NCBI RefSeq assembly: GCF_003019035.1 | Contig: NZ_CP027447.1 | Length of the DNA: 64,000 bases | Source of the DNA: Escherichia coli | Lineage (GTDB): Bacteria; Pseudomonadota; Gammaproteobacteria; Enterobacterales; Enterobacteriaceae | Direction: 5' to 3' (one strand) | Shown here: positions 39,280 through 40,053 of the stretch, in pieces | Position numbering within the stretch: position 1 is the first letter of the stretch | How the letters are laid out: every line of letters begins with the position of its first letter | The notes under the pieces: generated by a model | Told to the model about the DNA's origin: nothing | Database searches by the model: none | The model's input: the letters and a program-made list of their open reading frames with translations, nothing else | Translations under genes and position numbers: made by a program

Positions 39280-39645
39280 AGTGACTCCCCCTAACGTCGT
39301 ACTAAATAGTAATTACTGTCCATACCGGGAGCAGTATTCGGCGCTCCCCACATGCAGCAGAATAACCGCATCAGCGAAGATGTATTGTATTTTTACTATC
39401 ACAATGTGTACGGACGGTTTATGGAAAAGAATGAAAATTAGATACGCGATGGGGCGGCAGGTTACACGGTTATCACTACGATAGCCAATACTGGCTGGTG
39501 CATTACCGCCGTGAACAATAGGACGCCGTACTGCTGGAAATTTCTTACCTTTATGACTCCCCGCGCCGCCGTATTGGGAAACGGGAAGCAATCAAGATGA
39601 GGCTGATATAATGTGCGGAATGCCTGAGTATTTTTAGAATAGGGG
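39280..39645 (+). pseudogene. decayed fragment of a divergent Rhs core
   Basis: GC-rich island in an AT-rich stretch; frames read [16 protein letters not shown] and [13 protein letters not shown], resembling the core segment [12 protein letters not shown]...[12 protein letters not shown] of the intact rhs, with stops and frameshifts. Confidence 0.5.
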
Positions 39646-39651
39646 GGTAAT

Positions 39652-40053
39652 ATGTTTGATAGAATATATCTTGGTGATCGAGCAATAAAAAAAATTGAAT
39701 TTTATTTATGGACTAAACAAATTAGAATTCAGGTTAATTTAATCTCAAGGATAGCCTATGGTACAACAGAATGGAATTTTTATGATAATGAAGACTTAGA
39801 AGATGGTTATTTGGTATTTTCAGATGTTAGTTTCTTCAATATAACTCCTAATGGCTCTATTCCTGATGATTATATAATTTCAATAATTACAGATAATGTC
39901 AATGTTGAATATTTTGAATCAACTATAGTTGCAGTTGGACAAATTCCAAATACAAATTCTGGAGACATTGATAATATTGGTGAGTGTCAAATTTTCATCA
40001 GGTATAAACACAGCTGGATTGAGAATAAATTCAAAGAAAAAATAATTGAATAA
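39652..40053 (+). CDS. hypothetical cytoplasmic protein, possible orphan immunity protein
   Basis: 133 aa; GGGGGG Shine-Dalgarno; very AT-rich; sits immediately after the decayed Rhs fragment. Confidence 0.45.
   Translation: MFDRIYLGDRAIKKIEFYLWTKQIRIQVNLISRIAYGTTEWNFYDNEDLEDGYLVFSDVSFFNITPNGSIPDDYIISIITDNVNVEYFESTIVAVGQIPNTNSGDIDNIGECQIFIRYKHSWIENKFKEKIIE

Follow-up and report, generated by a model that had tools for sequence, protein, structure and literature searches.

Probable remains of a foreign-type Rhs toxin gene and its orphan DUF6258 immunity gene downstream of Escherichia coli rhsC

The 64,000-nucleotide (nt) stretch of Escherichia coli DNA analyzed here, referred to as the window, includes the kdp-ybfA-rhsC-ybfD-phrB region, the classical rhsC locus of this species. 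Its intact main rhsC gene (33864–38063, + strand), taken from the open reading frame (ORF) list and the RefSeq annotation, encodes 1399 amino acids (aa) with an RhsC-type core and served as the reference for our comparisons. An array of displaced tips lies 3' of this gene, and one member of the array, on the same strand, is the subject of this work: a decayed piece of Rhs core at 39321–39585, the last codons of a toxin gene at 39584–39637, and an intact 133-aa ORF of the DUF6258 family (PF19772) at 39652–40053. We consider it likely that this member is the relic of a foreign-type Rhs toxin gene, gutted by a single deletion, together with its intact but orphaned immunity gene.

The core piece, delimited by blastx, blastn and a four-way alignment, corresponds to residues ~915–1004 of RhsC. 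When 39100–39660 was compared with the window's RhsC by blastx, we obtained two colinear matches in different frames with a joint E value of 6e-12, one (MQQNNRISEDVLYFYYHNVYGRFMEKNE) to RhsC 923–950 and the other, 55% identical, to RhsC 963–1004. The original prediction had described a fragment beginning at 39280 that reads as Rhs core across two frames and an internal stop. The similarity to Rhs cores is significant, but convincing homology begins only at ~39321, and the reading passes through three frames, separated by 1-nt deletions near 39351/39352 and near 39452, and through two in-frame TAG stops (39439–39441 and 39519–39521), both of which are Gln-to-TAG changes relative to the Salmonella-type lineage discussed below. 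With only ~88 codons left and no continuous frame for the YD-repeat shell (NCBIfam NF041261, RHS_core), 39321–39585 is a relic and not a gene, and the C-terminal RHS-associated core domain with its PxxxxDPxGL cleavage motif is absent from it. The "GC-rich island" of the original description has itself a G+C content of 49%, below the 62–63% of intact cores; relative to a Rhs gene of S. enterica houtenae, the relic shows 66 G/C-to-A/T and 18 A/T-to-G/C differences. In O157:H7 copies of the relic (EDL933), an extra 5-nt deletion is present at ~39381–39385 (blast spans of 366 versus 371 nt), indicating that the decay goes on separately in different lineages.

Judged from its sequence, the relic is a Salmonella/Citrobacter-type Rhs core and not an RhsC-type core. 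By blastn, it is 75.7% identical to a core of S. enterica houtenae over 267 nt (E 3e-52) and 70–74% identical to four S. bongori core copies, while its match to the window's own rhsC reaches 65–67% over ~121 nt only. The four-way alignment showed that the relic has the Salmonella-type indel state, whereas rhsC carries 12 extra nt, and the peptide signatures REQY.ALP, IRDGG, HYRREQ and RRIGKR are common to the relic and the Salmonella type. An exhaustive phmmer search of 1.84 billion representatives with the repaired relic translation returned Rhs/YD proteins exclusively, the best intact ones being from S. bongori, S. enterica and Citrobacter. Proteins of this core lineage are ~60–66% identical to RhsC and 82–88% identical among its own Salmonella and Citrobacter members. 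The higher identity and the shared indels and residues indicate that the predicted "different Rhs lineage" is correct and can be named. A distant blastn search of all complete E. coli genomes found copies of the relic only, with no intact E. coli core of its lineage. A word-indexed protein search with the same repaired translation was uninformative about lineage, its sole match being a 55-aa ORF called on another E. coli strain's copy of the relic.

The 3' boundary of the relic is sharp. In every comparison, core homology ends at 39585 and homology to intact toxins begins at 39580, and the shared 6 nt, AACGGG (39580–39585, + strand), are a microhomology at the deletion junction. Intact cores read GGGAAACGGG followed by TGTGG and intact toxins read TGTCAACGGG followed by AAGCA, while the window reads GGGAAACGGG followed by AAGCA. 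The adjoining 39584–39637, which had been taken as the end of the Rhs core, consists instead of the 18 codons that end the cognate toxin gene (17 sense codons encoding GSNQDEADIMCGMPEYF and a TAG stop, + strand), out of frame with the core relic. This tail is 95–98% identical in nucleotide sequence to the 3' end of intact Rhs C-terminal (Rhs-CT) genes in E. coli AST215 and P15-25, and 82–84% identical to that in Citrobacter and Salmonella. The main rhsC of AST215 and an orphan Rhs fragment of P15-25 end in MSTGS(S/N)QDEADIMCGMPEYF and a stop, 13–14 nt before the DUF6258 gene. A tblastn search of the 64-kb window with the toxin gave a single match, of tip residues 143–161 at 39578–39634, and no toxin domain was found in the window beyond these 19 C-terminal residues. 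Since the toxin is intact 13–15 nt upstream of the 133-aa gene elsewhere, one deletion of ~1.2 kb probably took it out here. Rather than decaying gradually, the toxin appears to have been excised in one event that fused core codon ~1004 to the last 18 toxin codons; the simplest reading is that this deletion would have taken roughly 415 codons, namely the remainder of the core with the DPxGL region, plus the toxin domain.

In Citrobacter sedlakii, S. bongori and S. enterica, the toxin is borne on a RTLAEKFQQEANV-type core, the lineage of the relic's best matches, and we therefore infer that the relic and the toxin tail once belonged to one gene. The available Citrobacter contigs end part-way through the Rhs gene, and in Salmonella and S. 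bongori the orphans start downstream of the relic-equivalent region.

The 133-aa ORF is intact, has a Shine-Dalgarno-like run of six G residues (39642–39647, + strand; read from the sequence) 4 nt upstream of its ATG, and lacks a hydrophobic N-terminus, as the original prediction of a ribosome-binding site (RBS) and no signal peptide had it. It matches PF19772 with 87.1 bits (gathering threshold 25; E 1.4e-24), and so do all 20 of its aligned homologues. Homologues of 133 aa are 77–92% identical to it in E. albertii, Citrobacter and Salmonella, identity falls to 36–52% in metagenomic and other contigs, and the DUF6258 proteins share an invariant IYLGDR motif at the N-terminus. Pairwise dN/dS values are 0.10–0.14 between genera and 0.22 within E. 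coli (window versus AST215). Judged by this conservation, the 133-aa ORF is a real gene. We found no paper in the searchable literature that mentions DUF6258.

Intact Rhs toxin tips precede the same gene by 13–15 nt in E. coli AST215 and P15-25, Citrobacter sedlakii, S. bongori and S. enterica, so that these intact loci have an equally short spacer between toxin stop and ATG. Furthermore, Rahnella sikkimica, Diaphorobacter aerolatus and a Caldilinea (Chloroflexi) contig have a PF19772 gene 14 to ~130 nt after a homologue of the toxin domain. The Caldilinea toxin is fused to PT-HINT and not to an Rhs core, which indicates that the DUF6258 pairing follows the toxin domain and not the delivery module. 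The toxin domain has 28 homologues with 50–68% identity over a ~100-aa core, in which D-T-H-T, N, R, H and H.H are invariant, and the intact toxin homologue has the fold and conserved motifs of a PT7-type DNase toxin domain. PT7 is reported to be a DNase that requires metal, and PIM7 to occlude its active site (bioRxiv 10.1101/2021.10.19.465003); PT7(Bc)-PIM7(Bc) is a polymorphic toxin/immunity pair of Bacillus cereus (PDB 8OWU). The only PDB match of the toxin profile was this entry (8owu), with an E value of 0.088 and via a C-terminal motif; the model of the toxin matches one partner of the crystal complex, and that of the ORF product appears to match the other. From its position and modeled fold, the 133-aa ORF most likely encodes the immunity protein of a PT7-like toxin, which agrees with the earlier suggestion of an orphan immunity gene.

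Neither the ORF nor its profile retrieved anything relevant in sequence searches of the PDB, and Pfam and NCBIfam have no family for the toxin tip. A phmmer match of the tip to the DddA deaminase (6u08) vanished once the conserved Rhs linker was trimmed and was rejected as a linker artefact. A divergent DUF6258 homologue, P0047 (50% identical), was found in three contigs amid Imm15, Barstar-like and ankyrin genes.

The enterobacterial pair differs from the Bacillus one in several respects. Its toxin is delivered by Rhs/type VI secretion system (T6SS)-type cores, while the Bacillus PT7 uses LXG/T7SS, and it has an extra helical, Cys-rich C-terminal extension of ~60 aa. The ORF product and PIM7(Bc) are only 16% identical, and in the window, unlike in the Bacillus pair, the toxin has been deleted. 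The extension of the PT7-like toxins of Enterobacteria and Rahnella is predicted to be helical, with a hydrophobic stretch and several conserved Cys residues (toxin C-termini L002 6880–7055, L003, L007 and L016; alignment A2, columns 501–561). Most other toxin homologues have no such extension and end right after the AHWP motif, and two have a shorter, partial tail. The 18 toxin codons that survive in the window are part of this extension.

These observations suggest a history in which an ancestral array member would have consisted of a Salmonella/Citrobacter-type Rhs core, a PT7-like DNase toxin tip and a DUF6258 immunity gene. A ~1.2 kb deletion between two AACGGG hexamers may then have joined the core to the toxin's last codons, removing the PxxxxDPxGL cleavage region and the entire toxin domain, after which the leftover core would have gained its AT-biased substitutions, two frameshifts and two stops. 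The immunity gene would have retained its RBS and, in the window's strain, its reading frame. Its product, a predicted cytoplasmic all-beta protein, would bind the PT7-like metal-dependent DNase domain and occlude its active site as PIM7 does that of PT7. Given transcription, which read-through from the rhsC array might provide, the protein could protect a toxin-less strain from toxin-injecting attackers such as E. coli O55:H7, O121, O103 and porcine enterotoxigenic E. coli (ETEC), Salmonella and Citrobacter.

Among 5426 complete E. coli genomes, the relic is present in 875 and the ORF DNA in 837, that is, about 15% for the ORF DNA as compared with ~1% for the toxin, whose specific DNA was found in 58 genomes (O55:H7, O121, O103, porcine ETEC and AST215). 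The carriers of relic and ORF DNA include O157:H7 EDL933, ATCC 8739, E. coli C and the BL21 lineage. RefSeq strain DETEC-S792 (NZ_CP116067.1), which matches the window at 100% over the region, is not among the 58 toxin carriers at the sensitivity of megablast, and the ORF is therefore a true orphan there. The frame of the gene depends on a homopolymer of eight A residues (A8; 39687–39694, + strand) spanning codons 12–15 (ATA AAA AAA ATT), which is one residue shorter (A7), and thus frameshifted, in most other E. coli copies. In EDL933, C41(DE3) and ST131 MS14384, A7 replaces A8 and the frame is lost at codon ~14; for such copies, the NCBI annotation pipeline (PGAP) calls only remnants of 73–106 aa, from which the invariant IYLGDR N-terminus is missing. 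In Salmonella and Citrobacter, the residues of the tract are specified by ATC AAG AAA ATC, without a run, which indicates that the slippery tract is specific to E. coli and arose from synonymous AT-drift. Both tract states occur on both major DUF6258 haplotypes (A8 in the window and AST215; A7 in EDL933/C41 and MS14384), and this four-gamete pattern implies recurrent slippage or recombination.

Several results weigh against the interpretation as a whole. Of the E. coli copies sampled at even intervals from the hit lists, ~80% were 1 nt shorter at the A8 tract, so the gene appears weakly retained, which argues against strong selection for the orphan; the expectation that it was kept after its toxin was lost holds for the window's strain and fails for most other E. 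coli copies. A promoter scan of 38830–39650 found no σ70-like site on the + strand, nor did the overall count of sites exceed that in shuffled sequence, so that expression of the 133-aa ORF is putative. With regard to the assigned function, a Foldseek search of the ORF model against PDB gave nothing significant and did not list 8owu, the DUF6258 profile does not match PIM7 by sequence, and purified PIM7 failed to block PT7 mutants in vitro (bioRxiv 10.1101/2021.10.19.465003). Finally, we found no genome in which the exact core lineage of the relic is contiguous with the toxin across the relic-equivalent region, and the common origin of relic and tail accordingly has to be inferred.

The first two of these points would be expected if the ORF, although of the same identity, were a neutral leftover heading to loss, its intactness being nothing but the ancestral A8 state that has not yet mutated. 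The frameshift reaches O157:H7, BL21 and ST131, the toxin from which the gene would protect is rare in E. coli, and the tract itself was born of synonymous drift; on the other side stand the dN/dS value, which is still 0.22 within E. coli, the frame kept in ~20% of copies and the intact orphans in many Salmonella. We regard this as a serious possibility, somewhat short of an even chance. That the tract is instead a reversible slip-strand ON/OFF switch, toggling resistance to the PT7-type Rhs DNase toxins deployed by ~1% of conspecifics as well as by Salmonella and Citrobacter, seems to us quite improbable, although both states are found on the two divergent haplotypes; if true, A8/A7 switching would amount to a phase-variable "herd" immunity carried in a toxin graveyard. 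The missing contiguous gene leaves some room for the core relic and the toxin-tail/DUF6258 module never having been one gene, as unrelated array members joined by an illegitimate deletion or insertion, all the more as the intact toxin of E. coli rides on RhsC-type cores. This is unlikely, however, given that the Citrobacter and S. bongori toxin sits on the very lineage of the relic's best matches and that the two parts meet cleanly in 6 nt of microhomology, without intervening sequence. Because Foldseek and sequence-profile searches give no tie to PIM7, and the searchable literature holds no experimental work on DUF6258, the family could also be some other Rhs-linked accessory, an adaptor or chaperone, in place of an immunity protein, but we consider this very unlikely. 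Least credible of all, and close to untenable, is a heavily decayed E. coli RhsC-type core in place of a separate lineage: the AT-biased decay may well have cut the identity to rhsC, but the relic matches Salmonella-type cores over a longer span and more closely than rhsC, is without the 12-nt segment of rhsC, and has the residues specific to the Salmonella type. The gutted foreign-type toxin gene with its orphan immunity gene thus remains our preferred interpretation.

In the strain that matches the window, the RefSeq gene order is kdpA-kdpF-ybfA, a 1399-aa "RHS element core protein", a 189-aa hypothetical protein, an "NTF2 fold immunity protein", a "DUF6258 family protein", a partial RHS core domain, a partial ISAs1 transposase (ybfD), ybgA, phrB and dtpD. 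The next orphan downstream is the 3' end of an RhsC-type core (40146–40359, + strand; PGAP annotation), 98–99% identical to the core 3' ends of main genes and truncated by an ISAs1-family (H-repeat, ybfD) element at 40360–41352, so that the cut point of this core fragment is 40359/40360. In AST215 and P15-25, its counterpart runs on into another tip and more small ORFs. Upstream of the relic, a 100-aa ORF at 38798–39100 matches the Pfam family Imm-NTF2-2 (PF15631; E 2e-20); its long form opens with a signal-peptide-like hydrophobic stretch, MRNSLILLIMILFTISHSVFG, while the PGAP product is shorter (75 aa). No toxin remnant was found in the ~170 nt upstream of this ORF, which is a second orphan immunity gene of the array.

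The tip of the main rhsC and the 189-aa gene (window 37500–38629) correspond to an orphan RHS fragment and ybfC of the BL21 lineage (C41(DE3), L020 3393–5479), where PGAP names the 189-aa gene YbfC; ybfC is frameshifted in EDL933. The same tip thus occupies the main or an orphan position depending on the strain. No Pfam match was obtained for the main rhsC tip (177 aa tested) or for the 189-aa protein. The chromosomal site and the flanking genes are those of the E. coli K-12/B rhsC locus (rhsC-ybfB-ybfO-ybfC-H-repeat-ybfD), and in C41(DE3) of the BL21 lineage ybfC, the NTF2 immunity gene, the relic and DUF6258 are ordered as in the window. The window differs in carrying the ybfO-type tip and ybfC on the main rhsC, where K-12/B have them on an orphan, and in having an intact DUF6258 gene, the BL21 copy being frameshifted. 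The whole block is also held at another locus, rhsB of ST131 MS14384 (L021 717–6901, between nikR and yhhJ), with an Rhs tip, the 189-aa gene, the NTF2 immunity gene, the core relic and DUF6258. There, the relic is ~97% identical to that of the window, while DUF6258 is only 91.8% identical and nearer the AST215 allele, implying that the block moved between rhs loci and also recombined internally. In S. bongori (L022/L023 1135–17835), vgrG and the main Rhs gene are followed by no fewer than four orphan Rhs fragments that differ in their tips (PT7-like, Ntox16, Tox-WTIP and unknown), and the region also holds several DUF8309 genes; one S. bongori strain has, in addition, a SymE-toxin gene in opposite orientation directly ahead of the PT7-like orphan.

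Arrangements of this kind have been described before. Toxin-less orphan immunity genes are known from the acquired interbacterial defence islands of Bacteroidales and from the T6SS clusters of Vibrio cholerae. The window gene resembles them as an immunity gene in a toxin-less genome, with far fewer conspecifics carrying the toxin (~1%) than the immunity DNA (~15%), and differs from them in that no sign of mobility or of a dedicated promoter was seen, its protective effect is putative, and most copies are frameshifted. Orphan immunity genes and tip relics in Rhs arrays are likewise established (PMC2935791, PMC3150448). As in the displaced orphan Rhs tips of Jackson et al. 2009 (PMC2935791) and Poole et al. 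2011 (PMC3150448), fragments of tips and immunity genes are arrayed 3' of a main rhs gene, AT-rich tip DNA follows a GC-rich core fragment, and there are signs that tips have been exchanged between main genes and orphans as well as among rhs loci. Typical Rhs orphans, however, have a core 3' end near-identical to that of the resident main gene and an intact tip (PMC2935791, PMC3150448), whereas the core piece of the relic is from another lineage and from mid-core, and its tip is deleted.

Features like the one in the window arise routinely as bacteria turn over their toxin genes, and the finding leaves the current understanding of Rhs biology unchanged. It offers a worked example of how an Rhs tip array decays, in which a tip module with a foreign core would have lost its toxin, but not the immunity gene, to a single deletion at a microhomology. 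A likely role is also suggested for Pfam DUF6258, as the cognate immunity to a PT7-like DNase tip, and this toxin/immunity pair is shown to be carried on Rhs proteins in Enterobacteriaceae; a link between DUF6258 and PIM7/PT7 on Rhs appears to be absent from the searchable literature. In practice, a better annotation can be proposed for a gene found in ~15% of complete E. coli genomes, O157:H7 and BL21 included, and the A8 or A7 state of its tract flags the strains that might resist attack by PT7-type Rhs toxins.
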